A stretch of 64,000 bases of DNA, from NCBI GenBank assembly GCA_963924565.1, contig OZ004610.1, positions 4,216,001 through 4,280,000 on the forward strand, read 5' to 3'. The stretch is from Ascidiella aspersa (Eukaryota). Below the pieces are notes generated by a model. That model did no database searches, was not told the DNA's origin, and saw nothing but the letters and a program-made list of their open reading frames with translations. Positions 7,286 to 57,400 of the stretch are shown piece after piece; within the stretch, counting starts at the first letter, position 1; each line of letters begins with the position of its first letter. A program made the position numbers and the translations under genes.

Positions 7286-7390
7286 CTTGGCATGCTGTTG
7301 CTTCTCTGTTTGGTTGGTAGCCTGCCCTGCATTGGCATGATCCGGTGGGTACGGTCCACTCGCCGTTACTGTTGCAGCGGTACATGGGTA
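7286..7390 (-). CDS. Eph: Eph exon 6 (sushi/cysteine-rich region)
   Basis: 105 nt; VPMYRCNSNGEWTVPTGSCQCRAGYQPNREATACQ; phase-1 donor gtaat. Confidence 0.95.
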
Positions 7391-28079: not shown

Positions 28080-30830
28080 AAACGTTGTAGAAATACTTAT
28101 ATGACACGTTAACTGTAAAACCCTAAACAGGACACTGCCACAACGTTTATGAAGTACGTTTAAAAAACGTTGGGTATAAAAGGTAAGTTGTAACGCCAAA
28201 CATACGTTGTTAAAATACTTATATGACACGTTAACTGTAAAATCCTAAACGCAACACTGCCACAACGTTTGTAGAGTACGTTTATAAAACGTTGGTCGCA
28301 AAGGGTCAATCATAACGTTAAACCAACGTTGTAAAGTTACTTATATGACACGTTAACTGTAAAACCCTAAATGCAACACTGCCACAACGTTTGTAGAGTA
28401 CGTTTATAAAACGTTGGTCGCAAAGGGTCAATCATAACGTTAAACCAACGTTGTAAAGATACTTATATGACACGTTAACTGTAAAACCCTAAATGCAACA
28501 CTGCTACAACGTTTGTAGAGTACGTTTATAAAACGTTGGTCGCAAAGGGTCAATCATAACGTTAAACCAACGTTGTAAAGTTACTTATATGACACGTTAA
28601 CTGTAAAACCCTAAATGCAACACTGCCACCACGTTTGTAGAGTACGTTTATAAAACGTTGGTCGCAAAGGGTCAATCATAACGTTAAACCAACGTTGTAA
28701 AGTTACTTATATGACACGTTAACTGTAAAACCCTAAATGCAACACTGCCACAACGTTTGTAGAGTACGTTTATAAAACGTTGGTCGCAAAGGGTCAATCA
28801 TAACGTTAAACCAACGTTGTAAAGTTACTTATATGACACTTTAGCTGTAAAACCCTAAATGCAACACTGCCACAACGTTTGTAGAGTACGTTTATAAAAC
28901 GTTGGTCGCAAAGGGTCAATCATAACGTTAAACCAACGTTGTAAAGTTACTTATATGACACGTTAACTCTAAAACCCTAAATGCAACACTGCCACAACGT
29001 TTGTAGAGTACGTTGATAAAACGTTGGTCGCAAAGGGTCAATCATAACGTTAAACCAAGGTTGTAAAGTTACTTATATGACACGTTAACTGTAAAACCCT
29101 AAATGCAACACTGCCACAACGTTTGTAGAGTACGTTTATAAAACGTTGGTCGCAAAGGGTCAATCATAACGTTAAACCAACGTTGTAAAGTTACTTATAT
29201 GACACGTTAACTGTAAAACCCTAAATGCAGCACTGCCACAACGTTTGTAGAGTACGTTTATAAAACGTTGGTCGCAAAGGGTCAATCATAACGTTAAACC
29301 AACGTTGTAAAGTTACTTATATGACACTTTAACTGTAAAACCCTAGATGCAACACTGCCACACCGTTTGTAGAGTACGTTTATAAAACGTTGGTCGCAAA
29401 GGGTCAATCATAACGTTAAACCAACGTTGTAAAGTTACTTATATGACACGTTAACTGTAAAACCCTAAATGCAGCACTGCCACAACGTTTGTAGAGTACG
29501 TTTATAAAACGTTGGTCGCAAAGGGTCAATCATAACGTTAAACCAACGTTGTAAAGTTACTTATATGACACTTTAACTGTAAAACCCTAAATGCAACACT
29601 GCCACAACGTTTGTAGAGTACGTTTATAAAACGTTGGTCGCAAAGGGTTAATCATAACGTTAAACCAACGTTGTAAAGTTACTTATATGACACGTTAACT
29701 GTAAAGCCTTAAATGCAACACTGCCACAACGTTTGTAGAGTACGTTTATAAAACGTTGGTCGCAAAGGGTCAATCATAACGTTAAACCAACGTTGTAAAG
29801 TTACTTATATGACACATTAACTGTAAAACCCTAAATGCAACACTCCCACAACGTTTGTAGAGTACGTTTATAAAACGTTGGTCGCAAAGGGTCAATCATA
29901 ACGTTAAACCAACGTTGTAAAGTTACTTATATGACACTTTAACTGTAAAACCCTAGATGCAACACTGCCACAACGTTTGTAGAGTACGTTTATAAAACGT
30001 TGGTCGCAAAGGGTCAATCATAACGTTAAACCAACGTTGTAAAGTTACTTATATGACACTTTAACTGTAAAACCCTAAATGCAACACTGCCACAACGTTT
30101 GTAGAGTACGTTTATAAAACGTTGGTCGCAAAGGGTTAATCATAACGTTAAACCAACGTTGTAAAGTTACTTATATGACACGTTAACTGTAAAACCCTAA
30201 ATGCAACACTGCCAAAACGTTTGTAAAGTACGTTTATAAAACGTTGGCTCTAATCGGTAAGGTGTAACGCTTAAGATACGTTGTTAAAATGCTTATATGA
30301 CACGTTAAATGTAAAACCCTAAATGCAACACTACCAAAATGTTTGTAAAGTACGTTTAAAAAACGTTGGTTAAGGTAAGGTATAACGTTAAGAATAGCCT
30401 ACATTGTAAGAATACTTATGTAAAACGTTAACTGTGATAACCTGAAAGCAACTCTATCGAAAAGTTTGTAAAGTATGTTTAGAAGACGTTGGCTCTAAAA
30501 GGTAAGGTGTAACGTTAAACCAACGTTGTTAAATAACACTGTCACAACGTTTATAAAGTACGTTTAAAAACGTTGGACAAGGTAAGGTATAACATTAAAC
30601 ATAGCCTACATGGTAAGAATACTTAGCTGTAATAACCTAAAAACAACTCTATCGAAAAGTTTGTAAAGTACGTTTGTAAAACGTTGGTTCCAAAAGGTAA
30701 GTTGTAACGTTAAACAAACATTGCAAAAATACTTATGTGACACATAAACTGTGTGGACCTAAAAGTAACACTGAGCAACGGCAAAGTTTGTAGAATACGT
30801 TTAAAAAAAACGTTGATTCCAAAAGGTAGT
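28080..30830 (+). repeat. Left subterminal tandem array, 122-bp unit, ~22 copies
   Basis: gacacgttaactgtaaaaccctaaatgc... recurs at 28347, 28469, 28591 and onward; homogeneous centre, degenerate edges. Confidence 0.97.
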
Positions 30831-32217: not shown

Positions 32218-33653
32218 ATGGATCGAACTGCCTATAGGCGTCACTGGATGAGAGCAAAAAGATCTCGAAATTCAACCCATTTTTCAAAAAGTGTCCTTTA
32301 CTCAGTATAGTTTTATTTCCCAATAAAAGGCATTGTACTTCTAATGTAGTTGATTCGACAAGTTTAGATTCTAAATTCAATACTTCAAGATGTGCTACAA
32401 CCTTGCTGAATTCCAATACTGAAGCATTAGACAATCAGTCATTTTTATGGTCACCAGAATACAAAACAAGGGAATTATCTGATACTTCCGCATCTTCTGA
32501 TGCAGAGAATAATTACTGTAATGTAACATGTGATTTGATTGACTGGGTTAATAAATTTCAAGTAAAGCAAAATGCGGTAGATTCTCTCTTAAAACTGTTG
32601 TCAAAGCATGGCCTAGAAAAACTGCCACAGACTTGTCGGACCCTGATGACTACACCAAAAGAGATAAATGTTGTGCGTAGGTCTGGAATGGAATACTTTT
32701 ATTTTGGACTAGATTTTCAATTAACAGAAGTGATTTAAGCAGCATGTTGATTTACAATCGAGTTGCCTGAATGTAGTTGAACTGTCTTTAAACATAGATG
32801 GGTTACCTATTTTTAAAACAAGTGTTTCTGGCCAATACTTTGTTCGGTTGTAAATATAGGTAAAGCAACCGTTTTTCCAATTGCTATTGCCTATGGTTCT
32901 TCTAAACCTACTAATCTGGACTTTTTATTGGAAACTATAGATGATTTAAAATTACTCATTACAAATGGTATCACTGTTAATAAGTGTCATATTGGGGTTG
33001 TTTTGCACAGTGTCGTATGTGATGCACCAGCACGCTGTATGGTTAAATGTACGAAAAGTTTTTCTGGTTATTATGGTCACTTTGCACACAAGCTTTTAGT
33101 TAATTTTGTTTCGAAATGTTCTTCAATTTATGGTGATGAATTCTATGTATACAATGTACATAGTTTGACCCACTTGGCAGTGGAAGCCAGGAACTTTAAA
33201 TCTTTGGAAATGTGCAGTGCTTTTAAATTTGAAAATTATATGCAGAAGCTAAAAAAGTTGATTCGTTTAGAAAAGAGTCCACTTATTCAAGTCATAAAAC
33301 GAATAAAAGAAGAAAAAATCTTTACTATTCCTAACGTTTCCAAGTTAAACTGTTTGTCTCAGTTTTATCCTGACAATACATTTATTATAATCACTAGTTC
33401 AAATAACCGATGTGTTGAAATAATCGATATATATAATTCTGATAAAGTTCAAAATTATAAGTGCAGGGTGTATACTAATTTGCAGTCAATCTTCACTTAT
33501 CCGTGTGACTCTTCTGTGATAGGTGCTTACTGTGGTTATTTTTGTAACACCTATATTGAATATTTTCCTTCAGATGTCTTAAAGTGCAAAGCTATTTGTT
33601 TTAAGAACAACAAAAAACTATATTTTTTAGCCATACTTCATGACGAAGCTTAG
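32218..33653 (+). pseudogene. EnSpm/CACTA-type transposase pseudogene
   Basis: Motifs LNIDGLPIFK, FWPILC, VCDAPAR..K, SGYYG, YNVHSLTHL and SAFKFENY..LK; several frameshifts and stops between 32218 and 32930; in-frame jump SGYYG/HFAHKLL at ~33077 implies a large internal deletion. Confidence 0.88.
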
Positions 33654-35432
33654 ATAAACCATTCTATTTTTGTGACAAAAGCATATTGTTCTCAAACTTT
33701 ACACAATGTAGCATGATAATAAATTGCAAAGCCAAAAAGGTTGAGTAGATCGACATCATCAGAGAACTTTGGGTTTGCAAAAATCAACCTTATGATCGGA
33801 ATGTTGCAGAAGATGGCTGTAGACCTCTGATTTCTCATTGGCTCTGTGTTCTTTGACCCTTGTCAATTGCTTCTCTGTCACATTAACTGAAGATGATACA
33901 AGCTTGTATCGAAACGTCTTAATAATCAATAAGATCGCGATCAACTTTACCTTTTTGGCTATGCAATTTATTATCAAGCTACATTACAGATCTGAGCATA
34001 GTGTACCCATTTACACAATGTGTCATGAAACTTTCAATAACTTTATAAAATAATGTTTTACAATTAGATATTCAAGCATACTATGCCTAAATATACACTA
34101 CAGGTTAACTGCCAATATTATAGTAATTAACTTCTTGCGTATAATATTAAAATTTATAATTGTATTTTTATTGTTATGTTATGTTGTTAATGTTAGTCTG
34201 CTGTAAGTTGTGAGGATCACTTGTGTAATCATTCAAGCCCTAATAACAAAACTGTACGTTCCTTAAATATCAGTGCTTGTGTTTTAGTATACCTATAAAT
34301 CAATAACATTATAATTAAACCTTGAATTAATCTTACTCACACTAATGTGCAACCTTTAATCAATACCAGGTAAAATTAACTTGAAAATGGAGCTGCCCTT
34401 TTCGGTTGTAGAGTTTATTGAAGAAGGAAGCGTAGACATTGTGCCATCAACTTGGATTGTGCAAAGAAATGAGCAGGTTTTTTTCTGTTTTAAGTTTTAC
34501 TTAGATAACTGTTAAATCACATACACATTCAAAGGTGAAATGTAGGTAAATTTTTTGGGAGTTGACGGAGATGTTGCATGATTTTGACACCATAAGATTT
34601 GTGTAGAATAATTTATATACTTTTTAGTACAGTTTTACACCTAAATATCTATTTTAGCTAATATTAGCGCATTTTAAATTATGCAAACATTTTAGTTTAA
34701 ATCCTACTGGCCAAACAGCTCTCCTAGGCAAAAAGCAAAACGATTGGAAACACCAGACCCTAATTGGAAGTTGTTCAATGTTCGAATTTTTAAGTTTGCA
34801 GGTAAATTATTAGTTTGTATGTTTGATGTATTATTGATGCCTGACCGTGGTGTGAAAGTTATTATTTCAGCATTTGTTTATTTTAAATATCTGTTTTTAT
34901 ACATGTTGTCAAATAATAATTTTTGCATAATTTTGTTTTGAGTCTTTACCATTATATTTTTCATTGTGATTAGTGGTTTATAAAACTGTGGGTAACTATA
35001 GATTCTCAAGTGTGCATTTTAGACCCTTTCTGTAATTTTTGAAACTAGTCCATTTATTTGAAAAGGGTGTACAAGCATTATCATATTGCTGTGTAACCTC
35101 AGATTTCAATAATATTACTTTTTTCCACAGATAGCTTTGAAAAAGCTCAAAAATTGTGCACTAAGGCTGTAGAGACGTCAAATTTAGAAAGTGATGATGA
35201 AGTCCCAAGTAGGCGTTTAAGAGTACAAAGTCCAATTAGTTTTCTAGAAGGTATTAATAGTTTTGCTTTATGTTTTTGCCTGTGTTGTAACATGAATAAA
35301 ATCTTTTATCAATAACAAATTTGGTTGAAAATGTTTTGATAAACACTTTGAAAATGTTTTGATAAACTCAAAATATGTACATTGTGTTATAGAATTTTAA
35401 GCAGGGCTGGGGAGCCACCATAAAATAGCATT

Positions 35433-35580
35433 GGCTCCGGCTCCAGCTCCGGAGCCATCAGGCACTTGTCCAATAGCTCCAGCTCCGGAGTCGTCAAACT
35501 CATATCCTTTAGCTCCGGCTCCAGCTCCGGAGCCATCAAACACACACCCAATGACTCCGGCTCCAGCTCCGGAGCCACCA
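35433..35580. repeat. hAT left subterminal GGCTCC/AGCTCC repeats
   Basis: Repeated ggctccggctccagctccggagcc blocks. Confidence 0.9.
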
Positions 35581-35951
35581 GTCACTTATCCAATGGATTC
35601 AGATCTATAGGCATACAATTTTGAAAGCTGCTTTCGTCCTGGCTATATTAAATATGTTTTGTAGGATTTTACACAATAAAATACATCAGTTTAGTAGTTT
35701 GCTTTGTATCAATTTCAAATTCTGTTAAAAAAAGAAGCAGTTTACATTAAATTAGGAAAAAATCCTACTCTTGAATGAACTCTTTGTTACTCAATATCAA
35801 AAAATCATGAATCACTAATTCCAACACTAACGAAAATGTAATAAAAAAATTAAACAAGAGCAATGAAAGTTTAAAAACGAATAAAATGTAGGCTTTATAG
35901 TGCTCGTACTGTTAAACATACCGCTAATAATTGTTTCAGTTAAAACAAGGT

Positions 35952-37943
35952 TTATCGCACTAAATTTGATCTCAGAAACAAAATGGCTTCCAGCAAATCC
36001 TCCCTCATTGAAGCTCTAAGGTCAGACCGAATAATACGCAGAGCTGAAAACAACCGTTCCACACTAACTTGAGTAGGAGGAAGAGCAGTTACAGTGTAGG
36101 CAACCTTCTTAACATTTTCTGGATAGTGCTCTATTGCTTGAAGAACACTAAGTTTAGAGGACCGGTCAATCTTTTCCAATTCAATTAATGACTTTTCAAA
36201 GCATGCTTTAAATGCAGCTTCTGGATTTGGTTCTTCTCTTTCATTTGCAAGGCGCTGCCTTTTAGCCTGTTTATCCAGATGCTTTTCAAAATCAAACGAA
36301 TCGTCAGATAGAGAAACTGTTGAGGATGTTTCATGTTCACTCAATGAAGATGTGGCATTTTCACATGTTTCGTTTGTTCTTGAGAATTGATGCATACGAA
36401 AGGCTATATCAACTAATGCACGTTTGCCTCTTAGTGCTTGTTCCCTGTTTAAGGTTATTCTGTACATAGGATCAACATATATCGCCGACAAAAGCACATC
36501 ATTGTTCATAAGTTTTGTCTCCCGGTGTTGCATTGAGGTCCTGATTGCATCAGCTAACTTTCCACCAATTTGGGAAAGCTTAAAAATGAGTGTCTTCCAC
36601 TCTTTGTAGAAAGAGCCTGGTGTTAAATGTGCAGATTGCATTCGTTTTGTTGCAAGGAAAGGGTGTCGTAGCAATTCTTCCAGCTGTTTGATTTCATTCC
36701 ATTGATTTTCTGTTAAAGTGATATTAGGGTGTGCCAGATCCAGTAAACTGTTCTTTAATTCTAATAAACGTTGAATCATGAGATAGGTACTGCCCCACCT
36801 TGTTGCTTGGTCGATAATTGCACCTTTTTTCAATTTCCGTTTTAGAATTGCATCTATCTTGGGTGTCCTGGCTGTTATAGCAATTTGACGAACTTTACTA
36901 ATAAATCTATCCATATATTTGTCCTTAAGGCCATCTCTCACAGCTAACTGCAGTGTGTGAACTGCACAACGCATATGAGCTGTTTTTGAATAATCTGACA
37001 TTCCTGGCAGACACAAAACACTATTCAATACTTCATCTAAATCACTATTATTTTCATCGGCTTCACTTTCTGCTAAAACTCCCCTTATGCTACTGGTTTC
37101 ACCCATCTCAACTTCAGTTAAAACATCCAACTCAAAGCTGTCTTCTTCAATCTCAGCTTCTGTTAAAATATTTGATTCATTGTATTTTTCGATTGAACTT
37201 GCCATGTTTGAAGCGTTATCAGTAACAATGGCTAAAATTTGTTGTTTTGTCAAATTAAATTCTTTGAGAACAGTTTCAAGTGTGTACTGAAGAAAATCAC
37301 TGTTGTGTTGTGCTCGAGTATCGCGAACTGCCAGCGTTTGAATATCTAGCCTGTTGTTGGAATTAACAAACTGCACATTTATTGCAAGATAGTTAACTCT
37401 GTGCCTTGTGCAGCCATCCATCTTAAGAAAGACAAATTTGTCTCTTAGTTCTTCTTTTAATACCTTTTTTGGATCTGCTGCTGCCCTTATAACCATCTTT
37501 CTAATTTCATGCCTTTCCAAAGACACTCCAAGTTTACCTGCCAGTTCTCCATTTAATCCTTTAAAACCTCTTGAAGAAAAGAAAGTTAGTGGAATACTAT
37601 TTTCTACCACCATTTCAATAATATGTTGTTTAAACTTATTCTTCGTCATTGATACAGTAACTTTTTCATTTGAAAAAAAATTATGAATCGTTTCTCTTGA
37701 CATTCCTTTATCTTTTAAGGATTGATTTCCAGACCCTGCACAGCTATTTTCAGAGTCTTGGCCATCCATTTTCTGGTAAACCTCTGGATGATTTCTTTCT
37801 AGATGTCTTTTCAAGTTGAAAGTTTTTCCTACTAATTTGGCACTGCAAATGGTTTCACTCACCTTGACTTGACAAATGAAACATCCTGACATATCACATT
37901 TTAAAAAATATTTAAAGACTGCAGACTTCTTTCTTTTAGCCAT
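35952..37943 (-). CDS. hAT transposase (BED zinc finger, DDE core, dimerisation domain), 663 aa, intact ORF
   Basis: VFKYF..C..C..NLKRHL...H (BED); MDGCT, TDNASNM, CAVHTLQL, TRWGSTYLM, SVERLFS; single uninterrupted ORF. Confidence 0.96.
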   Translation of the reverse strand: MAKRKKSAVFKYFLKCDMSGCFICQVKVSETICSAKLVGKTFNLKRHLERNHPEVYQKMDGQDSENSCAGSGNQSLKDKGMSRETIHNFFSNEKVTVSMTKNKFKQHIIEMVVENSIPLTFFSSRGFKGLNGELAGKLGVSLERHEIRKMVIRAAADPKKVLKEELRDKFVFLKMDGCTRHRVNYLAINVQFVNSNNRLDIQTLAVRDTRAQHNSDFLQYTLETVLKEFNLTKQQILAIVTDNASNMASSIEKYNESNILTEAEIEEDSFELDVLTEVEMGETSSIRGVLAESEADENNSDLDEVLNSVLCLPGMSDYSKTAHMRCAVHTLQLAVRDGLKDKYMDRFISKVRQIAITARTPKIDAILKRKLKKGAIIDQATRWGSTYLMIQRLLELKNSLLDLAHPNITLTENQWNEIKQLEELLRHPFLATKRMQSAHLTPGSFYKEWKTLIFKLSQIGGKLADAIRTSMQHRETKLMNNDVLLSAIYVDPMYRITLNREQALRGKRALVDIAFRMHQFSRTNETCENATSSLSEHETSSTVSLSDDSFDFEKHLDKQAKRQRLANEREEPNPEAAFKACFEKSLIELEKIDRSSKLSVLQAIEHYPENVKKVAYTVTALPPTQVSVERLFSALRIIRSDLRASMREDLLEAILFLRSNLVR

Positions 37944-38029
37944 TTTACATATACGCTACTATGTCTAGATTTCTGAAAAATAAAACGTAAAATTAGCTAC
38001 ACTAGGATAAAACAGATACAGAAATCAAG

Positions 38030-39433
38030 ACCAAAAGCTAGCCAACACACTAGCTAAACGAAGAAATTTCAAAGGCAAAAAAAACATATTTAGCCTCATT
38101 TTTTTAGAAAAAAAATTTTACCACAACAATAAGAATGATCTATATTTACAAAATAAAAATTAAAAAATTAAAAATTAAAAAAAATATTAATATTCAAAAT
38201 TAATATTCGCAACAATTTTTAATAAAAAATAATTTACGCAACTAGAGACCAACAAAATCGCATAGCGCTTGATAATACCTTTCCAACGATGCCACACATG
38301 ACTCGGTAAAAGTTGAGGCCATACGCTTTTATCGTCGATAACCGATCCTAAAATTCATAAGCGATCGCGGTAATTTTTAAACGCCCGTCACTTGCCCAAT
38401 TTAAAGTGCAAGTGAACGAAATTTTATCAAGACATTTCTACAAACCTTATAATGCCATAGAAAGAAAAAATAGTAAAAAATTTTAATGTTGAAAATATTT
38501 CAAATTTAGCATTTGTTATGCGTAATATCGAGTTTTTTCATCCCACCAACATCCGACCAAAAAAGACCCAAAAATCAATTTACGCAACTAGAGACCAACA
38601 AAATCGCATAGCGCTTGATAATACCTTTCCAACGATGCCACACATGACTCGGTAAAAGTTGAGGCCATACGCTTTTATCGTCGATAACCGATCCTAAAAT
38701 TCATAAGCGATCGCGGTAATTTTTAAACGCCCGTCACTTGCCCAATTTAAAGTGCAAGTGAACGAAATTTTATCAAGACATTTCTACAAACCTTATAATG
38801 CCATAGAAAGAAAAAATAGTAAAAAATTTCAATGTTGAAAATATTTCAAATTTAGCATTTGTTATGCGTAATATCGAGTTTTTCATCCCACCAACATCCG
38901 ACCAAAAAAGACCCAAAAATCAATTTACGCAACTAGAGACCAACAAAATCGCATAGCGCTTGATAATACCTTTCCAACGATGCCACACGTGACTCGGTAA
39001 AAGTTGAGGCCATACGCTTTTATCGTCGATAACCGATCCTAAAATTCATAAGCGATCGCGGTAATTTTTAAACGCCCGTCACTTGCCCAATTTAAAGTGC
39101 AAGTGAACGAAATTTTATCAAGACATTTCTACAAACCTTATAATGCCATAGAAAGAAAAAATAGTAAAAAATTTCAATGTTGAAAATATTTCAAATTTAG
39201 CATTTGTTATGCGTAATATCGAGTTTTTTCATCCCACCAACATCCGACCAAAAAAGACCCAAAAATCAATTTACGCAACTAGAGACCAACAAAATCGCAT
39301 AGCGCTTGATAATACCTTTCCAACGATGCCACACATGACTCGGTAAAAGTTGAGGCCATACGCTTTTATCGTCGATAACCGATCCTAAAATTCATAAGCT
39401 ATCGCGGTAATTTTTAAACGCCCGTCACTTGCC
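38030..39433 (+). repeat. Left TIR arm: ~200-bp AT-rich outer domain plus ~3.5 copies of a 346-bp unit
   Basis: aatttacgcaactagagacc at 38231, 38577, 38922, 39268. Confidence 0.96.
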
Positions 39434-40162
39434 TATTGTTCGAAATGATTTCAATAATCTCATATAGTTTTAAGAAAAAATGCCTTTGTTCTAACAACGT
39501 CCTCGCATTCATTGTCATTCTTTACGCTTTTAAAAGTCTTTGCGCCGGCTATTGTTCCCGGGGTAAAGGGCTGTTATCTTTTCGCACCAATTTCTAGAAC
39601 CAAACATGTAAAGCGAGAAAAGATTCTAGGAATGTTCTCTTTAAAAACTAGGTTTTGCTGTTGATAATTCAAATAGCGAAAAAGTTGTGAACATTTGCTT
39701 GTAAAACGAAATCGATATATTCAGGGGTTGTACTAGCGTGAAATAGTATTTTGATGTATACCGTTATTTTAATCCTTAGTTTTCCAGGTTGAGTATGCGC
39801 CATATCGCAATTTTCTTTAATAGGAGCTTCTTACTCAATACAGAAGACAGTTTACTTAAACTAAAAAAGTCAGTTGCACATTGTAATTTAAGCATGATTT
39901 TTGTAATTGTTTGAAATTAGAAATAGTACATACTAGAATGATGAAATAAAATTTAAAATCATAAAAAATATTTAAAAGTTAGATTAGAATGAATTTCCTG
40001 GGTTTAAATGTATATTAAGTCTAAAATGTGAATTGCCAGTTCAAAATATGTTTTACCTTAGGTAAGATTTTGGGTCAAGATGTCGTATTCCTATTTTTAA
40101 GACCAGATCCAAAAATATGTTTAATATTTCTGGTATTTTAGAGTTTTAACTTGGTTCAGCCT

Positions 40163-40215
40163 AGTTGTTTACCCAAAGTTGTTTACCCAAAGTTGTTTAC
40201 TCCGAAGTTGTTTAC
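40163..40215 (+). promoter_or_regulatory. Four tandem AGTTGTTTAC motifs (Forkhead-type TGTTTAC) upstream of the cargo gene
   Basis: Copies at 40163, 40177, 40191, 40206; function is inferred only. Confidence 0.4.
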
Positions 40216-40428
40216 CAGTTTTTAATTTGTTTGTTAGCATGGTCGGTATCAGCGACTGATCGGCCCGCTCGGGCTCAAGCGCCTGTAATCAATGGCTCAA
40301 GCAATCAACGAGACGCCTTCCATATAACGCGTGTGTAAGTACGTTTCTAATTCTAGTCTTTACGACATTCTCTACAGTGCAAATATACTGTCAAAATATT
40401 CAAAGATCATTACTCTTACTAATCAAGA

Positions 40429-43400
40429 ATGTATATTCAAACCGACGAAAGTACTTTCCGCTGGAGCAAGGTAAGAGTAAAATGAAATTTGTATTATTAT
40501 TTTCTTAAAGTAATTTACATTTTAAAAGTAGCTTACATCCTGTTATTTATCACAGGTTAGAGCCTTAGTTAAAGGTATTCGGCCTCCAGTGAAGTCCTAT
40601 GGCAGAGGAATTTGCGGGAAGCAAGTGAGCTGGAAGGTTCCTTTACCGAGCTCCCGCAAACGGCTCCTCTATGTTTCCGACAGCAATGCTCGGAACTTGG
40701 TTGAGCCCTGCCTCGTAAGGCCATCGTCCAACTTTGCGTTCGACGTTTGTGGCCTCAGTATTCCCGGGGGTACCACCAGGCATGGTATTACCGAGCTGTC
40801 AAACAGCCGAATACTGGATGGAGTTGCTGCCGTCGTTATTGGCCTTGGCACTAACGACGTGGTCAACAGCAGCCCGGAGGAAGCATCAGCCTATCCTTCG
40901 AGGTATTGTTTGATAATGTTTTATAAGTTTACCCTATAGACTTATTTCTTTTTACTATATTTCCTTTTAGACTTATTTCTGAGATCTTGGAGGATACGAG
41001 AGCGCTGATCCGCCTCACTAAAGTGTTGTATCCAGGAGCGAAGGTTGTTACACGTTTCTTAATGTGTAGTTTTAGTGTGTAGACAGTTTTTCATATACAA
41101 CTAATCATTGTAATTTGTTGCACTTAGATCTTCCACACCGGAGTGCTGCCCCAGTTGACGCCCCAGGGCTGCATGGTGCAGCAGCTGAACAGCGCGATGA
41201 GGATCGGCGTCGAGGAAGAAGGGGCGGAGTTCCTCGGCCTGGACGTCCCCTTCGCAAATGGGAAGTGGTCCGACAAACTCCATATTTCCTTGAGTGCTCT
41301 CCGTGTTTATTTTTTACAGATTGAAGAGAGAGTCACCAGGATCTTGGCCGAGGAGGAGAAGAGAGCTGTCCCGATCCCCCTGATGCGGGCCCTCAGCAAC
41401 TTTCCGACTCTTCCCACAACGGAGGCCCCGATTCCCCTGATGCGGACCCTCAGCAACTTCCCAGCTCTTCCCACAACGGAGGTGAGAGTATTTGCTTGTA
41501 TATGTGGTTTTTAACACAATTTTATTTTTTACGTTTTGTGTGTGAAAGCGATTATAGTACATTATAAACTTAAATATCCCTATTTCAGGTGTGTCACAAG
41601 ACGACCATGGAGGTAGATGTCGTGCGCACCACACAAAGTGCTGTTTCGCCTGTGGTAAGTGAAGCAAATATATTTTACCTATCTTTTTTGCAAATATTTG
41701 ATGATAATTTTCGTATTTGCAGATCTTTCCGAAGGCATTTAGAGGAAGCACCCCTGTTTCGTCGATGCTGGAATTTGGTTTTTCCGCAAATGAGGTAGGT
41801 CTTAAGATAACAAATTAATTCAACTTTATGCTATTCAAAATTATATTTCTTAAAGGGGAAGAGCGGGGAGTGGAAAATCATGGCAACGAGAAAGCCAGTG
41901 GCATCGATCGTCGGGGCCAAGAAGGACCTCCAGCCTGCAGTAAGCGATTTTGTAAAATCTTTATCATTTATCAATACTTAGTTAAGTTGGACCTTCAAAC
42001 GGAATTTTTTTGTAGACGACCGTTGGAGCACGGGTGTCGGCTCCATCGAGCAGTTGGCTCAAAAAGGTCGTCCCTAAGCCTGCGGTAAGTGATGCTGTAA
42101 AGGTTTTTTCAATACTTGTTTGAGTTGGACTTTTAAACAAAATTTACTTGTAGAGTGATGAAGATGAGTGGACTATCGTAGGATCACGAAAGTTCACTCG
42201 ATCGAGCAGCAGGATTAAAAAGGTGGACCCCAAGCCTGTGGTAAGTATTGTTGCAAAACTCTTTCAATACTTGCTAGATTTGATGCTCTAACGCAGTTTA
42301 TTTAAAGACGACTGTTGGAAAACTTCCTTCGTTTCCATTGAGCAGCGGGCTCAAAAAGGTGGATCCCAAGCCTGCAGTAAGTATTGTTGCAAAACTCTTT
42401 CAATACTCGCTAGATTTGATGCTCTAACGCAGTTTATTTACAGACGTCCGTTGGAAAACTTCCTTCGTTTCCATCGAGCAGCGGGCTCAAAAAGGTGGAT
42501 CCCAAGCCTGCGGTAAGTATTGTTGCAAAACTCTTTCAATACTCGCTAGATTTGATGCTCTAACGCAGTTTATTTACAGACGACCGTTGGAAAACTTCCT
42601 TCGTTTCCATCGAGCAGCGGGCTCAAAAAGGTGGATCCCAAGCCTGCGGTAAGTATTGTTGCAAAACTCTTTCAACACTCGCTAGATTTGATGCTCTAAC
42701 GCAGTTTATTTACAGACGACCGTTGGAAAACTTCCTTCGTTTCCATCGAGCAGCGGGCTCAAAAAGTTGGATCCCAAGCCTGCGGTAAGTATTGTTGCAA
42801 AACTCTTTCAATACTCGCTAGATTTGATGCTCTAACGCAGTTTATTTACAGACGACCGTTGGAAAACTTCCTTCGTTTCCATCGAGCAGCGGGCTCAAAA
42901 AGGTGGATCCCAAGCCTGCGGTAAGTATTGTTGCAAAACTCTTTCAACACTCGCTAGATTTGATGCTCTAACGCAGTTTATTTACAGACGACCGTTGGAA
43001 AACTTCCTTCGTTTCCATCGAGCAGCGGGCTCAAAAAGGTGGATCCCAAGCCTGCGGTAAGTATTGTTGCAAAACTCTTTCAATACTCGCTAGATTTGAT
43101 GCTCTAACGCAGTTTATTTACAGACGACCGTTGGAAAACTTCCTTCGTTTCCATCGAGCAGCGGGCTCAAAAAGGTGGATCCCAAGCCTGCGGTAAGTAT
43201 TGTTGCAAAACTCTTTCAATACTCGCTAGATTTGATGCTCTAACGCAGTTTATTTACAGACGATCGTTGGAGCACGGGCATCTACTCCTTCAACCAGCGG
43301 GCAAGCGAAAGAGGTATTAACCCCAGCGGTAAGTGTATATTTTTGCGAAACGTTTAGTGGTCAAAACAATTTGTGGTCGATCATCTAACTATATTTTCTT

Positions 43401-44378
43401 GTAGAAGACCGTAGGAGCACGGACATCTGCTTCTTCAACCAGCGGGCCAAAGAAAGTAGTATCCAATCCTGTGGTAAGTGTTGTTGAAAATAACATCCAC
43501 ATTGTGACCTTGGTTTTATCAACGTATTTATTTTTTTGCAGCCAAAGCAACGAATTTATGGTGGGGCACGTATGGTAGAAAAGTCGGATGATAAAATTAA
43601 ATTAATAAAAAGCGCAATTGATACGTTTGATTTTGACCGTTCGTGCAGTGCTAGTTGGATAACTTTGGTAGGCAAATTAAAAAAACGAAAAATGGCGAAA
43701 AAAGAGATTAGGTGCGAAGTTCGTAGTCTACAAAATTTTTTTGCGCAGCATGCTGACGAGTTTAGTGAAAATCAAGGTAATGAGAGTTTGTCAGTTCAGT
43801 GTGATAAAAATAGTGGCGCTGTGTTTTGTGCAGACAGTTGCGGTAGTAGCAATGGTGCTTTGTTGAATGTTGAGGATGTGTCTCGTATGGATATTGTAAA
43901 AAACGTGGTGAAAAGTAAGAGTCTTGACGTTAAGCAGAATGATAAAATAAAATTGATAAAGAGCGCAATTGAATCTTTTAATTTTGATCGTTCGTGCGGT
44001 GCTAGCTGGAAAATTTTAGTTGGCAAATTGAAAAAACGAAAAATGTCGAAGAAGGAGATTAGGGATGAAGTTCGTGGTCTACAGAATTTTTTTGCGCAAC
44101 ATGCTAACGAGTTTAGTGGAATTCGTGATTTGTCAGTTGAATGTGATAAAACTAGTGGCGATGTGTTTTGTGAAGACAGTTGCGGTAGTAGCAGTGGTGC
44201 TTCGGTTGTTGAAATTAGTGAAGATGAGTTTTGTAGTGAACCATTGTTGTGTGAGAGTCCAGTTGATCAATTGTCGTCGTTTGACGAAAATGAACCAGCT
44301 TTGTCTAACAGCATTAGTTGCGAGTTTTGGACTCCTGACACTAAAATATCGCTATTTTTTCTTTCTATGGCATTATAA
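40429..44378 (+). CDS. Transposon-borne SGNH/GDSL hydrolase-domain protein with 23-aa repeats and a duplicated C-terminal domain, ~883 aa, 19 coding exons
   Basis: Exons 40429-40470, 40556-40902, 40971-41043, 41128-41481, 41589-41654, 41723-41794, 41856-41939, 42016-42084, 42154-42240, seven 69-nt exons starting 42308/42444/42580/42716/42852/42988/43124, then 43260-43328, 43405-43473, 43542-44378. All are GT-AG and join without a stop. SGNH blocks: YVSDSNAR, IPGGTT, GLGTND, DKLH. The start codon is uncertain. Confidence 0.82.
42241..43260 (+). repeat. 136-bp tandem repeat (69-nt exon plus 67-nt intron), ~7.5 copies
   Basis: tttacag|ACGACCGTTGGAAAACTT...CCTGCG|gtaagt at exact 136-bp spacing. 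Confidence 0.97.
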
Positions 44379-46525
44379 GGTTTGTAGAAATGTCTTGATA
44401 AAATTTCGTTCACTTGCACTTTAAATTGGGCAAGTGACGGGCGTTTAAAAATTACCGCGATCGCTTATGAATTTTAGGATCGGTTATCGACGATAAAAGC
44501 GTATGGCCTCAACTTTTACCGAGTCATGTGTGGCATCGTTGGAAAGGTATTATCAAGCGCTATGCGATTTTGTTGGTCTCTAGTTGCGTAAATTGATTTT
44601 TGGGTCTTTTTTGGTCGGATGTTGGTGGGATGAAAAAACTCGATATTACGCATAACAAATGCTAAATTTGAAATATTTTCAACATTAAAATTTTTTACTA
44701 TTTTTTCTTTCTATGGCATTATAAGGTTTGTAGAAATGTCTTGATAAAATTTCGTTCACTTGCACTTTAAATTGGGCAAGTGACGGGCGTTTAAAAATTA
44801 CCGCGATCGCTTATGAATTTTAGGATCGGTTATCGACGATAAAAGCGTATGGCCTCAACTTTTACCGAGTCATGTGTGGCATCGTTGGAAAGGTATTATC
44901 AAGCGCTATGCGATTTTGTTGGTCTCTAGTTGCGTAAATTGATTTTTGGGTCTTTTTTGGTCGGATGTTGGTGGGATGAAAAAACTCGATATTACGCATA
45001 ACAAATGCTAAATTTGAAATATTTTCAACATTAAAATTTTTTACTATTTTTTCTTTCTATGGCATTATAAGGTTTGTAGAAATGTCTTGATAAAATTTCG
45101 TTCACTTGCACTTTAAATTGGGCAAGTGACGGGCGTTTAAAAATTACCGCGATCGCTTATGAATTTTAGGATCGGTTATCGACGATAAAAGCGTATGGCC
45201 TCAACTTTTACCGAGTCATGTGTGGCATCGTTGGAAAGGTATTATCAAGCGCTATGCGATTTTGTTGGTCTCTAGTTGCGTAAATTGATTTTTGGGTCTT
45301 TTTTGGTCGGATGTTGGTGGGATGAAAAAACTCGATATTACGCATAACAAATGCTAAATTTGAAATATTTTCAACATTAAAATTTTTTACTATTTTTTCT
45401 TTCTATGGCATTATAAGGTTTGTAGAAATGTCTTGATAAAATTTCGTTCACTTGCACTTTAAATTGGGCAAGTGACGGGCGTTTAAAAATTACCGCGATC
45501 GCTTATGAATTTTAGGATCGGTTATCGACGATAAAAGCGTATGGCCTCAACTTTTACCGAGTCATGTGTGGCATCGTTGGAAAGGTATTATCAAGCGCTA
45601 TGCGATTTTGTTGGTCTCTAGTTGCGTAAATTGATTTTTGGGTCTTTTTTGGTCGGATGTTGGTGGGATGAAAAAACTCGATATTACGCATAACAAATGC
45701 TAAATTTGAAATATTTTCAACATTGAAATTTTTTACTATTTTTTCTTTCTATGGCATTATAAGGTTTGTAGAAATGTCTTGATAAAATTTCGTTCACTTG
45801 CACTTTAAATTGGGCAAGTGACGGGCGTTTAAAAATTACCGCGATCGCTTATGAATTTTAGGATCGGTTATCGACGATAAAAGCGTATGGCCTCAACTTT
45901 TACCGAGTCATGTGTGGCATCGTTGGAAAGGTATTATCAAGCGCTATGCGATTTTGTTGGTCTCTAGTTGCGTAAATTGATTTTTGGGTCTTTTTTGGTC
46001 GGATGTTGGTGGGATGAAAAAACTCGATATTACGCATAACAAATGCTAAATTTGAAATATTTTCAACATTAAAATTTTTTACTATTTTTTCTTTCTATGG
46101 CATTATAAGGTTTGTAGAAATGTCTTGATAAAATTTCGTTCACTTGCACTTTAAATTGGGCAAGTGACGGGCGTTTAAAAATTACCGCGATCGCTTATGA
46201 ATTTTAGGATCGGTTATCGACGATAAAAGCGTATGGCCTCAACTTTTACCGAGTCATGTGTGGCATCGTTGGAAAGGTATTATCAAGCGCTATGCGATTT
46301 TGTTGGTCTCTAGTTGCGTAAATTATTTTTTATTAAAAATTGTTGCGAATATTAATTTTGAATATTAATATTTTTTTTAATTTTTAATTTTTTAATTTTT
46401 ATTTTGTAAATATAGATCATTCTTATTGTTGTGGTAAAATTTTTTTTCTAAAAAAATGAGGCTAAATATGTTTTTTTTGCCTTTGAAATTTCTTCGTTTA
46501 GCTAGTGTGTTGGCTAGCTTTTGGT
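44352..46525 (-). repeat. Right TIR arm: ~5.7 inverted copies of the 346-bp unit plus the outer domain
   Basis: Reverse complement of the left arm with about two extra units. Confidence 0.96.
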
Positions 46526-47915
46526 GAAATCAAGTTGCCTTAACACAGTGGTTATCAAACTGTTTTTCTTTGGAACAAGTCAACGCCTTTGGAATAACAA
46601 TCTGTTGGATTTGATTGTCACCAACAATGGTCTTTTTGTGCAAACAAAGCCCATTTTACAACAAAGCCCATTTTATTTATTGTTTTTAAAAATTATAATC
46701 AACTGCTGCAGATTTTTGGAGCAATAATTTCAAATACAGATATCATGGAATAATAATATCTGCAAGGATTTTATTACCACAATAGAGTTTAAAACGAATT
46801 AATTGTGTGACGCCCTGTGTAAGTTCACTGTAGTGAGCCCTTTTTTAGCATTATATCCTGTTTGTCTTGTGCATTGTCTGTACTGAAGTTAACATTAATA
46901 TTTTAATGTGTCGCAACACGTCAGCACATCAAATTAATTCTTTGTTTTATCGCCTTAATGTTGCGTCATGAAAGTTTTTGTTTAAATTCGATTGCCGATA
47001 TCTCTTGCTAGAGTTTGCAACGAATGCCTTGTTACACCAATTTTTATGCGTCAGAGCTGTATGTGATGTTACGTATATCCGTTTAATGTGAGCGCTTTGT
47101 TTTGAAATTCGCCTTATTGTCAACAATCCATTATTTTTAGATCGAAGCGCTTTTGTTCAAGCCATATTTGGACAAAAATATTATTTCCGTCTATAAGAGT
47201 CGAGAGAAAAAGGTTTAGACCACGCCTTGTTATCACGTGATATTTTGTTAAGTATTATAAGAATTAATGACGTAAATCTTTCTTTATCGCAGAAATTTTC
47301 TTAACTGATTCTCGTCTATAAATAGCGTGTTCAATCAATATAAACAAGAAGAGAGAGAGGGAGAGAGAGATGAGGTTTTTATAGCTTCTACTCAGACAGC
47401 AAACTTGAGTGCTTTTGTGACTGAACCAGAAGAGAGGCTTTTTCAGCTTTGACTGAAGACAGCAAAATTGACTGTTCATGTATCTGAACTAAAAGAAAGA
47501 ATTGGACCTGTCTGGCCTCACGAAGACAGGCCATCTCAAATCTTGTAGGAGTGTGGTCGATTCATCTTGGCAATTATATAAATGAAGACTCATTAATCTG
47601 CCATACCCCCACAAATGTAATTCTTAGAACAGAAATTTAACTCTCTATTATAAGCTCTATGGCCTCTATAATTCCCTTTTGTACCTCTTTGCAATATATA
47701 TCATGACAGACAACCAGAAGAGATTAATATTGTGACACAAATTTCTCCATACGAGTTACAAAATCCCCCCTCCCCCCTTTATATTTTATATCAGTTTACA
47801 GTAAACTTGCTTTATTTCAAACCAAGGCCAGTTTTCAAAAATTGCTTTTGGCTAACTAATATTGGAGATGGAACAAAATGTAATTTCGTAGCTTTATCCC
47901 CTCAAATTGAAAAAT

Positions 47916-48066
47916 GGCTCCGGCTCCGGCTCCAGCTCCACATAAAATAATAAAACTGGCTCCGGCTCCGGCTCCAGCTCCACAAAAATAATAAAAATGG
48001 CTCCAGCTCCAGCTCCGGCTCCAGAGAAAATGCTTAGCTCCGGGCTCCAGCTCCGGCTCCGGCTCC
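47916..48066. repeat. hAT right subterminal GGCTCC/AGCTCC repeats
   Basis: Repeated ggctccggctccagctcc blocks abutting the TIR. Confidence 0.9.
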
Positions 48067-49822
48067 CCAGCCCTGATTTTAAGGTGTGTTTATATTTATA
48101 TAAATCCATAATCTTTTGCTTACTTTTTGTAGTGGAATTTGACAAACAAAAAGAAATACCAGAAGATGAAAATAATGGTCAGTAGAAATATAAAATTTAA
48201 GTTTTTACAATTTTTTTTAACCATGATAGGTTGACTTTTTTAAGAATTGGGTACCATAAAATAAGATGTATGATAATGAAGGATTGGAACCAATATTCTA
48301 TGCCAAATCATAGTAGTATTGGTGGTACTTGTCCGATACCAAATTAAAATAGGCATTTAGCGATGCCCCTATGCAGCCATTTAACTTGAATAACTTTGAC
48401 AGTAAAAAAAACTATTTTTAATTGTGTTGACCATCGGCATTTGCACTCTTATCTTTTATTTTTTCATAACATGGCCAGTGATCATTATTTTTTTTAAGTC
48501 TCTACTTGTAAATTTATTTCATAAAAATATGTAAATTTATTTCATAAAAATATGTGGAAACCCCAGAGTAATAATTCAATTTGTAACCAGATCTTAGACC
48601 GCTGTACCTTTTATCCAAAATTTATGCATTGGTATGGCATTGAAATAACACGAATACAACAGATCTGTCTGCTAGAAGTGTTTCTATATCCAAAAACTGT
48701 GTGCCAATTTGGCCTTTCACTCCTGCATCAATTTTTCCATGTTGGTTTTCTTGATATTTAAATTAGGTTGAATGTTTTTGCACTCTGGATTAAAAATTTT
48801 TCATGTTATTTTCTAATGTTAAATTGCTAATTTAGAGTTATTTTAAATCAGAAATGGATGATAGTTGTGCGTCACAACAAAAGGCAACTACTCAAGAGGA
48901 AAGACTAAATGGTAAATTTATTGTTTGTATAACACTTTTAAGGAAAATGTAATTTTTTATACAGCTTAGTGCAGTGGTTACAAACCTTTTTCTCCTGTGC
49001 ACCATTTTAGTCGATATTCAAATATAATTCCCCCTTACAAATTAAGTTTGCTAAAATATTGTTTACATTAATATTTTAATGTAATTCTTACAACAGAAAT
49101 TAAACTCTTGATTATATCTCTAGATATGATGTCACAAATCATCAAGTGACCTAGACTTGCAAATTAATAATTCGTAAACAAGTGCAAAGCTTTATCTTTT
49201 TTCTTTTCTCGAAATTTCTTTGAGTATCCACTTTAAATCAATTATACAAGAACTTTCATTTTTTTAGCTCATATATAGCGAATGCAGCAATAACACATAA
49301 CACAAATTCCCCCCTAGTGATTCAGTCCATTGTTGCAAATTGCAGTTATATATTAAGCTGTAAGTGCTTAGATACACACCTTAAAATGTAATTCTGTTAT
49401 TATTTCCTTGACAAAAACATAGAAATTGGGAAGAATTACTAAGCGCGTCCATGCCACCCAACAACTTAAGAAATGGTCTCCTTTTAAATTTCTGTAAACT
49501 TATATTCTTTTATGGGATGAACCCTTTTCAAGTTGTCATTCTAGAAAAAAATATACGTTGGGTAACTGTTTTCTCCTTTTACAGTCAAAATTGATCTTCT
49601 TCTGGAAATGCAAAAAGAACTGGACAAGCAAGTTAGAAGAGCTTTAGTAAATATTTTCAAAACAGACCAACCTCTAGAATTTGATTTACTTGAAGAGCCG
49701 ATGGATAGCATGTCACAATTGAATCAATTAGAAGAAAGTATAAAAGAAAACAAAACTCTTCGTCAAAACATGGTGAGCACAGGGTGTTATCAGCAGTTTA
49801 AAAATTATGATACTATATAAAT

Positions 49823-51629: not shown

Positions 51630-52320
51630 ACATAAGAAATCAACGTTCAACGAACCTTCTTTTCAAATGTTACTTCTAAACGTTTATACAACCTATATTC
51701 GTTACGTTTGAAACTACGTATTAAAGTCGTAACTGGTTGTTCACAAAATCACGTCCGTACAACCTTTTAGCAAAACGTTAGGTAGCATAAGAAATCAACG
51801 TTTATACAACCTAAATTTATAACGTTTGAATCTACGTTTTAAAGTCGTAGCTGGTTGTTCACAAAATCACGTCCGTACAACCTTTTAACAAAACGTTTAG
51901 GTAGCATTAGAAATCAACGTTTATACAACCTAAATTTATAACGTTTGAATCTACGTTTTAAAGTCGTAGCTGGTTGTTCACAAAATCACGTCCGTACAAC
52001 CTTTTAGCAAAACGTTTAGGTAGCATAAGAAATCAACGTTTATACAACCTAAATTTATAACGTTTGAATCTACGTTTTAAAGTCGTAGCTGGTTGTTCAC
52101 AAAATCACGTCCGCACAACCTTATGTTTAAACGTTTAGGCAACCTAGAAGTCCAACGTTCAACGAACCTACTTTTCAAATGTTACATCTGAACGTTTATA
52201 CAACGTGTATTTCTAACGTTTTAATCTACGTTTTAAAGTCGTAGCTGGTTGTTCACAAAATCACGTCCGCACAACCTCATCTTTGAACGTTTTTGGTAGT
52301 TAGAAAAGTCTTAAAAAAAA
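51630..52320 (+). repeat. Right subterminal tandem array, 119-bp unit, ~5-6 copies
   Basis: gtagcat(a/t)agaaatcaacgtttatacaacc at 51782, 51901, 52020. Confidence 0.95.
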
Positions 52321-54410: not shown

Positions 54411-57400
54411 AAAAGAGTAAAAAAAAGAAAATAATTCAATTGAAAAAGGGCCATCTACGCACAAAATTAAGGGGCAAATTAAGGGTAAAAATCAAGTCGA
54501 AAATCCGCAAATTAATTTAAAAATCGCCCAATCAGACTGAAAATTGCCAAATCCTTCTAAAAAACTGCCAAAAATAGCCAAATCGGGCAAAAACAGGCCT
54601 CCAAATCTAGCTGGCGCCACAAAACCACGCAAGAGCCACTCCAATAGTACGAGGCGACGAATCTAATCAAATCCCGTTTACTTTCCCCAAGGGAACTGCG
54701 CTATTGCGGCTACTCGAAAACCGAGCGGGCAATTTGAGGAACTACAACCCCCTTTGAAGCCCCCGACCCTAGAAACAGCCCCAAGGGCCATTGGCGCGAT
54801 CTCAAAACGCGACAGCGGCATTTTAGCGATGGCGCAATCGCGATTTTCGAGTCGTAACGCGATTCGAGTCTTGTCGCGTCATTTTTGAAGGGCGCTTGAA
54901 ATTCCGAAAGGCGCCTTCCTTATGACACTGTTTCACATTTACTTCGGGAGAACCGCTGGCACTTCAGAGTTGCGCTAATGGCAAAATTGATTTGATTGAG
55001 CGGTTATAAATAGAGTAACTTGTAAATTAAAAATCATAAGTTGGAGAGGACACATTCACAATTTTTGTTTAATGTTTTTGCGAATCTTTGCTAAAAATGA
55101 ACCGTTTACGACCGTGAGATTATTTACAGTAAAATTAATGGAATTAATCCGCAATCAACGGATTTAAATAAAAAAATGCTCTAACTTTAACCTGTTTCTC
55201 GGTTTGCGCTAATACGGCAAATTAACAATTATTACGAATGTATTAGGTTAATATTAAACATAGTTTTGGTCTATTTAAAACATTTAGGTTTAAACCACCT
55301 TCTGCCTTTTTCAAGTAACATGACAGGAATGTTACTTTCAAAGTATCAAGTTTGCAACATCGATTTTAAGAGGAAACGAGAGCGGTTTTCTTCGCGGGTT
55401 CAAATTTCACCAAACTTCGCGCGTTTTGCTACTTCAAGGACCACTAACACCTGCGTGCTGGGTACCGCATGTAACACCGTGTGCTTTTCAAAGTCATACA
55501 AACACGTAGAAAGATGCAAAACTGTTGCAGCCAGTTGTTGGTTTCACGCATGGCGCGAAATACCGGTTTAAACCGGATTTAAGCAGCGGAAAGCGGTTTG
55601 GTGTCGAAACAAGTTTCATCCTGTCACGACCCAATGAAATACCACTTGTGTGTTCGCATGTAGATTGCAAGGCAGTCGAACATTAGATATCGTTTACAAG
55701 GGAGCTAAGAAACGCTGATATTTTATTGAAATGGCTTTGTCTGAGGTGTTTGCCTGCCCTGAACCGGCTAAGGTAAATAAAATAACGTGAGTTTTGGCAT
55801 TTTGGTGGTTTGGTATGACATTCAACAAAGGTGTTAACGCCACTAGTATGTTTTTCATAACTTTGGCAAATTTTTGCCGAAACTGCCTAGATTCGTTCCA
55901 ATCACCGGTTTAGGGATATCCAAAAACAAAAACATCTAAAAATTGGATATCTAAAGAAATATTTCGTCTTTATCTTACAGTTTGAAGTTTACTTTCTTTC
56001 TTTTTAATAACCTAGGCGAATTGTGCCACAATTAACTATCTAGCATGACGTTTACCTATAAATTTAATCAGGCGTTTTTTTCAAGGCTGTGTGGTAAAAT
56101 TCTGTCGCAAGTTCGACTCGATTTACAGCGAAATCAAATTGCAGCTTTTCACGCGACGTAATGAGCGCTCCAAACCGGTCATTTTCACACCGTTTCGCAA
56201 GTAAACGCCAGTTTACCAGAAAACTTGCCCGAAATTCGCGACAAACCTCGCCGCGGGCTGTCATTAGTTGTTAATCTGAAAGCGAAGCGACGAAAAGCCG
56301 TAAATTTCCCACAACTATATAGGGCTATACTGAATCACACACAAAACGATTGGGCAGAGATTTTTCACGAACTGTCAAAGTTTTATACGCGTTCCTTAGT
56401 TATTACCATTTAAATCGTGACAAAAAATCGCGCTGTTTTAACATATAAAACTTTTTTAAACCAATATTTTGCAGCCTTGTCATAAATTGCATCACAAATT
56501 TAGATGGTAATTAAAAAGCCGTGATTGCATTTAAAATGGTTTATTTTCCCGAATTAACGAAGTTTCGATCAAATTTATAAAACATTTATAAAAAAATGTG
56601 TTGGTATCCATTTGATTTAGTTTAAAAAATCACATTTTATCGATTCGTTATAACCAGGATAGGAATATTTTCGCCTGACACATAAATCGCTTTAGTGGTG
56701 TGGTCGATTTTTTTTGCGCCGTCATAGAAAAGCCGTGAAACGTATTTAAGGGCGCAGCATAATAATCGATTTTCACCGGCGATGAAGCGAGATTGGAAAG
56801 GCATATGCGCATTGGTCAGTTTGCATAGCGATATAAGCCCCCCATGACGCACATATTGGATCGATAAGACAATTAAAACGCTTGTGGCAAAATCACGCCT
56901 TCTGCTCATATAGAACGAAAGGCTTAAGGCGTGAATGATTTTCTGGTGCGCTTTTCATTTAAAACCGTCTCCCGTGTTTTTTAATAAAGCTGGCGGTGGT
57001 TTGAAAATAGCCGATTTTTGATATGGCTAATTATTAGAAGCATGATTGAATACCTAATGCAACTTCAAGTCAAAAATGATTTGAATTTCATAAAATACTG
57101 GTCTTGTAATTTGTTTTTTTATGGATGCCGATTAGAAGAGCGTAGTAAGGTTGGAAAAAACAAATTTTGGCCGTTAATTCGCAATTATATAGGAGCGTGA
57201 TTCTATTTCTAGCACTCTTTCAAATCAAAAACGTCCAGCGTAAATTCTAACAAGGTGGTGGTTATAAAATTGTCTTTTTTGGCCGTTAAGGCTATTTATA
57301 GTTTTCAAATTTGTCCAACGTGAATTCTGAACGCAATGTCGATTTAAAAATTTTTTGGGCCTTTTTTCGCGGTGGCCAATTAACCGGCAGGTGGTCGTCC

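Follow-up and report, generated by a model that had tools for sequence, protein, structure and literature searches.

Rehavkus transposons are characterised, in the passages of PMC6446971 that treat them, by a 9-bp target-site duplication (TSD), one open reading frame (ORF), a PHD finger, a minisatellite, and insect and annelid hosts. The relevant part of a preprint (bioRxiv 10.1101/2024.12.02.626372) adds long termini with variable tandem repeats, and where PMC13359780 mentions them they serve only as an outgroup. Ulp1 and PHD regions have been aligned from Mutator and Ginger1 transposases (in the part of PMC2836005 concerned with these regions), and tandem exon duplication is given as occurring in 7-17% of metazoan genes (in the part of PMC3342872 concerned with its frequency). 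Here we analyse a tandem array of 136-bp units in a 64,000-nt stretch of DNA from Ascidiella aspersa (assembly GCA_963924565.1, contig OZ004610.1, positions 4,216,001 to 4,280,000 of the forward strand), hereafter the window, whose own coordinates are used throughout. The transposon that harbours the array is a Mutator-type (Rehavkus-like) foldback element of 8.5 kb, flanked by a 9-bp TSD. It is likely that each exon-plus-intron unit encodes a 23-residue piece of a basic, low-complexity linker between an esterase-like domain and a transposase, and that the number of units varies through slippage or unequal exchange.

A tandem array of predicted exon-plus-intron units

The array was delimited by TRF at 42201-43271, with a period of 136, 7.9 copies, 97% matches and a score of 2037. 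On the plus strand it holds seven near-identical 69-nt predicted exons, each with a 67-nt intron (42308-43192, from TRF and the gene model). The 69-nt segments occupy 42308+136n to 42376+136n (n = 0-6), each preceded by AG and followed by GTAAGT; CTAAC is present in the 67-nt spacers between them, and the acceptor of unit 1 reads AAG. This bears out the initial annotation, made from the letters of the sequence, which had proposed seven nearly identical 136-bp units whose 69-nt exons had their own donor, branch-like motif and acceptor. The peptide TTVGKLPSFPSSSGLKKVDPKPA is the exact translation of four of the seven units, and units 1, 2 and 4 each differ from it by one residue. The annotation had missed a second CAG in every 136-bp unit, 11 nt 5' of the in-frame acceptor, the use of which would give an 80-nt, frame-shifting exon.

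Diverged paralogous exons had also been proposed on both flanks of the array, at 42016, 42154, 43260 and 43405. All four starts were recovered in the plus-strand gene model, and the size is 69 nt for 42016-42084, 43260-43328 and 43405-43473, but 87 nt for 42154-42240. The linker is predicted to open with phase-0 exons of 66, 72 and 84 nt on the same strand (41589-41939), and the related 84-nt exon, at 41856-41939, had been absent from the earlier list. Satellites in the window served as controls and were scanned for GTRAG donors on both strands; none was found in two 346-bp units of the terminal inverted repeats (TIRs) and two 119-bp units, and one was found in two 122-bp units.

Esterase-like domain, linker and transposase

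The gene model of the window copy comprises 19 exons and 883 aa with no internal stop. Its first predicted coding exon is 42 nt long from the ATG (40429-40470, plus strand), and the same exon is present in L025 and L030, two intact relatives among the genome stretches described below. Exons 2-4 (40556-40902, 40971-41043 and 41128-41481, plus strand) would encode an SGNH/GDSL esterase-like domain, in which the Ser, Gly, Asn and DxxH blocks are represented by SDSN, PGG, GTND and DKLH, which we take to be SGNH blocks I, II, III and V. Beyond the linker, the last predicted exon (43542-44378, plus strand) carries a duplicated 117-aa helical module and the first transposase residues, and ends in the right TIR. 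The frame departs from the transposase at 44351 and, across the deletion at 44351/44352, enters the right arm; the transposase core is gone. The window copy is thus a non-autonomous deletion derivative. L023 and L025 run on into the transposase beyond the window's deletion point, L023 being cut inside the DDE core. Two further in-frame internal duplications were noted in the window gene, at 41370-41482 (57 nt) and 43588-44235 (351-nt offset).

The intact relatives are predicted to encode a single protein consisting of an SGNH esterase, basic linker exons, a DDE transposase, an Ulp1-like region and a PHD finger. The gene of L030 has 11 exons and 1,619 aa and that of L025 has 20 exons and 1,838 aa; in both, all junctions have GT-AG and the frame runs without an internal stop. 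A 3,654-nt exon comes after the linker exons of each and carries a zinc-finger-like region, the DDE core, the Ulp1-like region and the PHD finger. D233, D306, CxxH (C352/H355) and E547 (L025 numbering) are invariant in all eight aligned sequences. The predicted structure of the transposase (pLDDT 78) had the ISCth4 transposase as its top four fold matches in the PDB, the best with an E-value of 1.7e-4 and a low TM score of 0.22. ISCth4 is presumably of the IS256/Mutator type, and we regard CxxH as a mark of Mutator-like elements (MULEs). Intact L025 therefore has both the DDE triad with CxxH after the second Asp and the IS256-like fold of Mutator/MULE transposases, in the region that the window copy has lost. 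The PHD finger of the intact relatives lies above the Pfam cut-off, and Ulp1 passes its cut-off in the related proteins P0001 and P0004, though not in L025 or L068.

As for the esterase, the related proteins P0008 and P0011 pass the cut-off of PF13472, the esterase exon of L068 reaches an E-value of 0.012, and the atlas neighbour was GDSL (0.91). A Pfam search with the ORF pieces of the window gave nothing above cut-off for the esterase or the last exon, the esterase exon of the window, searched by itself, drew no hit in Pfam, the L068 esterase exon had no meaningful match when its sequence was compared with the PDB, and a single-sequence structure model of P0011 had a pLDDT of 45. Both the esterase exon and the transposase are more constrained than the linker exons, the proportions of non-synonymous and synonymous differences (pN/pS) being 0.016/0.092 for the esterase exon, window against L030, and 0.086/0.327 for the transposase.

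The foldback element

The left TSD, GAAATCAAG (38021-38029, plus strand), is followed by a left TIR of 3.5 tandem 346-bp units (38030-39433, plus strand); a right TIR of 5.7 such units (44352-46525, minus strand) precedes the right TSD of the same sequence (46526-46534, plus strand). The inverted arms, identified with TRF and by self-comparison, are 99.7% alike and measure 1,404 and 2,174 bp, arrays included. The array therefore lies inside the element, between its two arms. Among 14 copies with both ends, the TSD was 9 bp in 11, 8 bp in two and absent in one. Duplications within 8-11 bp and long TIRs, as in Mutator/MULE elements, are thus both present. A reading of the locus as a host gene was rejected, because TIRs and a TSD enclose the gene, of which dispersed copies exist. 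An assembly artefact is unlikely, given the other unit numbers at other loci and the variants carried by individual units.

Unit number across element copies

Sixty related genome stretches (given L numbers) were compared together with the window, making 61 sequences; they were found by genome searches and so represent lower bounds. A profile seeded with five window exons detected linker exons in 24 of the 61. The check on unit number suggested by the initial annotation gave seven amplified units in the window, four in L021 and nine in L023, all in the window's own subfamily (A). In subfamily B there are one in L030, two in L029 and three in L027, and L025 has a 571-bp four-exon block in three copies; subfamily C, with a 149-bp unit, has five in L036 and two in L039, and subfamily D, with a 150-bp unit, has one each in L040 and L065, three in L061, four in L054 and five in L062. 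The number of units thus visibly differs between element copies while the frame is kept, as in a change of length without frameshift, and the comparison of copies and gene models supports the proposed growth of symmetric phase-0 exons by duplication of the whole exon-plus-intron unit.

The clearest case is that of the intact siblings L030 and L025, which have 3 and 12 linker exons, respectively, with both frames open. Of the 5,264 sites compared outside the expanded block, 10 differ; being nearly identical and yet nine linker exons apart, the two siblings indicate rapid change in unit number. When 54 units from eight sequences were placed in a tree, with ten other sequences left out, the amplified units of A, C and D fell into subfamily-specific clades (support 100/98, 95/99 and 98/98, respectively), which argues for at least three separate amplification bursts.

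Some copies are rearranged: L021 has inverted internal pieces and no esterase, and in L036 the 5' part of the linker is inverted at both ends. A cluster of decayed, fragmented family copies (L027, L028 and L056-L058) was also seen at G000:C2:37.1-37.95 Mb.

The units as coding exons

Because seven identical copies amount to one observation of the splice signals, chance was tested on 16 diverged exon types (<90% alike). To build the exon set, 18 of the 24 linker-bearing sequences were used, which supplied 111 units; L028, L031, L035, L037, L056 and L057 were omitted, as were calls lacking GT, the inverted L036 piece and two single calls. All 16 types are stop-free in the predicted frame, the other two forward frames containing stops in 8 and 5 of the 16. 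The sixteen types stay 69 nt long, and identity across them at codon positions 1, 2 and 3 is 0.77, 0.66 and 0.61, respectively. Their pN/pS of 0.66 (codon bootstrap 0.50-0.87) reflects weak purifying selection of the kind expected of a linker. Exon length is divisible by three in 108 of the 111 units, and introns vary, mostly between 67 and 81 nt. The figure of 108 follows reassignment of 38 units to 69 nt and of one from 92 to 81 nt. The 38 were reassigned because no more than about 5 nt separate the upstream CAG from CTAAC, because subfamilies C and D lack this CAG, and because the in-frame AG lies 16 nt from CTAAC, as it does in units with no competing AG. As judged from these comparisons, that the units are coding exons and that their number changes is well supported.

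Several points weigh against this reading. Exon calling required AG and GT, the profile was itself seeded with window exons, and in those 38 of the 111 units a frame-blind acceptor score had taken the upstream CAG, giving an 80-nt exon. The omitted sequences include three decayed ones (L028, L056 and L057) with stops and off-frame lengths, and stops occur in 5 of the 111 units, including one in L021 and one in L062. One antisense frame is stop-free too, as expected from shared third positions. The pairs behind the pN/pS estimate for the linker exons are non-independent. Unit-private changes in the A arrays comprise five non-synonymous, one of them a stop, and one synonymous, a pattern that would fit drifting inserted copies. 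No intact subfamily-A copy was present among the 60 stretches, which come from searches that give lower bounds. Finally, about 6% of one RNA run (X3) was read, a depth too low to show silence or skipping; it gave 23 reads on 39600-44400, none at least 99% alike and none with a GT-AG joint, and no read on the array (42015-43302) in this shallow sample.

The read data neither support nor oppose splicing. The only joint-like signal near the esterase exon, in two RNA reads, was rejected, as its 10 letters match the unspliced intron of the decayed copies L056 and L058. Contigs of X1 and X2 span introns and behave as DNA.

Intronless linkers in sister families

Relatives at 53-55% and at 30-32% transposase identity have intronless, in-frame repeats at the linker position. 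These consist of 87 bp x 7, 69 bp x 6.2 and x 4.2, 75 bp x 7.8 and x 26.7, and 54 bp x 38.3; they are basic and rich in K, P, S, T and A, with repeat units of 18-29 residues and a net charge of +3 to +5 in the four units measured. An esterase lies upstream of the intronless repeat in four of six such elements, and in L068 esterase, repeat and transposase are joined in 1,540 aa over four exons. As these intronless relatives share a repeated basic linker, the linker is a family trait, with or without introns. KTVG in the L069 unit also occurs at the start of several 69-nt exons.

Among named proteins, the closest belong to Styela clava, Ciona intestinalis and a fish. In two ascidian records (Ciona and Styela) the same esterase is joined to Ulp1-PHD or to the start of the transposase; these are gene predictions and not proof of splicing. 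HMMER found 20 proteins with the L068 esterase exon, and a weak, word-indexed search for longer proteins with that exon found none among 361 candidates.

A larger related family (L073, L074 and L075) has single ORFs of 2,300-2,900 aa with a repeat linker, PHD, DDE core and Ulp1-like region, and the ORFs presumably contain ubiquitin-protease-like Cys and His boxes. P0005 carries PF00443 and PF02902. Of the fish relatives, P0004 is a transposase from Betta whose N terminus has an acidic 20-residue repeat, and P0018 is an SGNH protein from Nibea with a W-V-T-V-basic motif resembling that of the 84- and 87-nt exons.

Favoured and alternative explanations

The most likely explanation is tolerated slippage in a length-tolerant linker. 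The introns would be spliced at the in-frame AG, and gain or loss of a unit would be tolerated because each exon is of phase 0-0 and a multiple of three. Changes in number would arise by slippage in gap repair after excision, or by unequal exchange, which accords with terminal arrays that are just as variable and with a patchy intron variant along the A arrays; the same error-prone copying may alter the 346-bp terminal arrays. Selection in active lineages would purge frame-breaking changes and care little for exact length, and the array in the deleted window copy is probably no longer under selection. The initial annotation, which had envisaged an accordion of symmetric exons, was largely right; what had gone unnoticed was that the array belongs to a Mutator-type foldback transposase gene, that the catalytic core is lost, and that recent changes in the array are seemingly unselected.

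Linker length, set by unit number or exon skipping, might instead tune the transposase, so that the element gains from varying it, for example through the spacing between esterase and DNA-binding regions or through non-specific nucleic-acid binding by the basic repeats. Families whose transposases are only 30-55% alike have a basic repeat recurring at this one position, made of exon-intron units in one case and of intronless repeats in the others, which would fit such selection, as would the at least three separate amplifications. We nevertheless consider it unlikely: intact copies are open with either 3 or 12 linker exons, so that no length is visibly favoured, the private changes in the A arrays run five to one towards non-synonymous, and the TIR arrays are equally free to vary. 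A related proposal is that an esterase-carrying chordate foldback lineage converted an intronless coding minisatellite into a micro exon-intron array, with wholesale multiplication of introns, and that unit number together with exon skipping now fixes how long a basic tether on the transposase is, as a dial for its activity; this is offered as a speculation of low probability. A tuned tether and exon skipping are conceivable.

It is likewise rather improbable that the ancestral exons are real while the seven-unit run arose only after the subfamily had lost its transposase, and so was never part of a working protein, being no more than tandem decay in an element already dead. Deletion or rearrangement affects all three A copies with the array (the window, L021 and L023), a stop lies in one L021 unit, the within-array changes look neutral, and the shallow RNA sample placed no read on the array. 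Against this, the intact B copy L025 has the same kind of expansion within its open 1,838-aa frame, the array is older than the differing deletions of the window and L023, two copies that have variants of units 1 and 2 in common, and the esterase exon of subfamily A keeps a low pN. A late origin of this kind may apply to the window copy, and tolerated slippage to the family. A reading in which the splice signals arose by coincidence, the array being an internal satellite without coding function or a piece of a single large intron, is very improbable. The shallow RNA sample gave no spliced read and an out-of-frame CAG competes within the 136-bp unit, but the frames stay open through up to 20 exons, the 16 types show a codon-position pattern and avoid stops, and the intronless relatives have a coding repeat at the same position.

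Genomic surroundings of the element

The foldback element is nested in a hAT transposon at 35402-48075 with an 8-bp TSD, ATTTTAAG. The hAT ORF is open over 667 aa (35952-37955, minus strand) and has BED and hAT dimerisation domains; the foldback element has inserted some 80 bp upstream of the probable start codon of this ORF. Around the hAT element, fragmented plus-strand ORFs and small exons occupy 32238-35250 and 48130-49780, with a weak DUF4218 match (E 0.021). Perhaps a third, outer transposon surrounds the hAT element, giving three nested elements, and we take this outer element to be possibly CACTA-like. A direct duplication of about 9.8 kb links positions 1-9785 and 54414-64000 of the window at 86-97% identity, and satellites of 122 bp x 18.8 (28072-30828) and 119 bp x 3.7 (51679-52292) are present.

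Comparison with known systems

The locus illustrates, in small and countable form, the multiplication of introns through internal tandem duplication. Copies that are almost identical and share one genome differ by as many as nine introns, and the linker of sister families is intronless; owing to this contrast in intron number among copies and families, the rate, mechanism and cost of such gains are directly measurable. The findings also suggest that chordates, for which a 2019 review, in its relevant passages, reports little evidence of MULEs, contain Rehavkus-like Mutator elements bearing an esterase-like domain at the N terminus. When repeats are masked, the 5' half of these transposase genes is lost from view. 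We found no paper describing an esterase-bearing Mutator element or a transposase with repeated symmetric exons; Repbase Reports, subscription journals and supplements lay outside the search, and an earlier description is possible.

Tandem repeats in long inverted termini and a single ORF with PHD, the latter in the predicted model of the intact relatives, are shared with Rehavkus. In the Rehavkus table of PMC6446971, however, TIRs measure 26-400 bp and hosts are arthropods and annelids, in contrast to arms of 1.4-2.2 kb in a chordate here, and the passages on Rehavkus in that paper mention no esterase, introns or repeated linker exons (no occurrence of SGNH or intron). As TIR length and host differ in this way, the element is called Rehavkus-like and is not filed as a member. 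An Ulp1-like region and PHD placed C-terminally after the DDE core recall animal MuDR/Mutator transposases, and Ginger1 genes have 1-4 introns, as given in the parts of PMC2836005 dealing with these families. In contrast to the MuDR/Mutator elements treated there, the genes described here would carry an SGNH domain at the N terminus, and their linker would comprise small repeated exons, up to 12 or more in number.

The esterase itself recalls that of ZfL2-1 ORF1p, described in the pertinent part of PMC3905857 as a transposon SGNH domain with its active-site motifs kept, beside a basic, poorly conserved linker. ZfL2-1 is a non-LTR retrotransposon, whereas the predicted fusion partner of the SGNH domain here is a DDE transposase of the cut-and-paste kind. 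The exons are duplicated together with flanking introns, as in animal tandem exon duplication, which according to the corresponding part of PMC3342872 is usually tied to mutually exclusive splicing; here, in contrast, the exons are near-identical and seemingly additive. The human LPA kringle IV-2 (KIV-2) variable-number tandem repeat is likewise a coding unit with exons and introns, present in variable number with the frame kept (PMC11201333, in its account of the repeat), and between copies of the present element, too, the number varies and the frame is kept. The KIV-2 unit, in the same account, spans 5.6 kb with two exons, encodes a folded domain in a host gene and reaches up to 40 copies, whereas the unit here is 136 bp with one 23-residue exon of disordered type, in a transposon. 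Each ingredient of the combination has a precedent.

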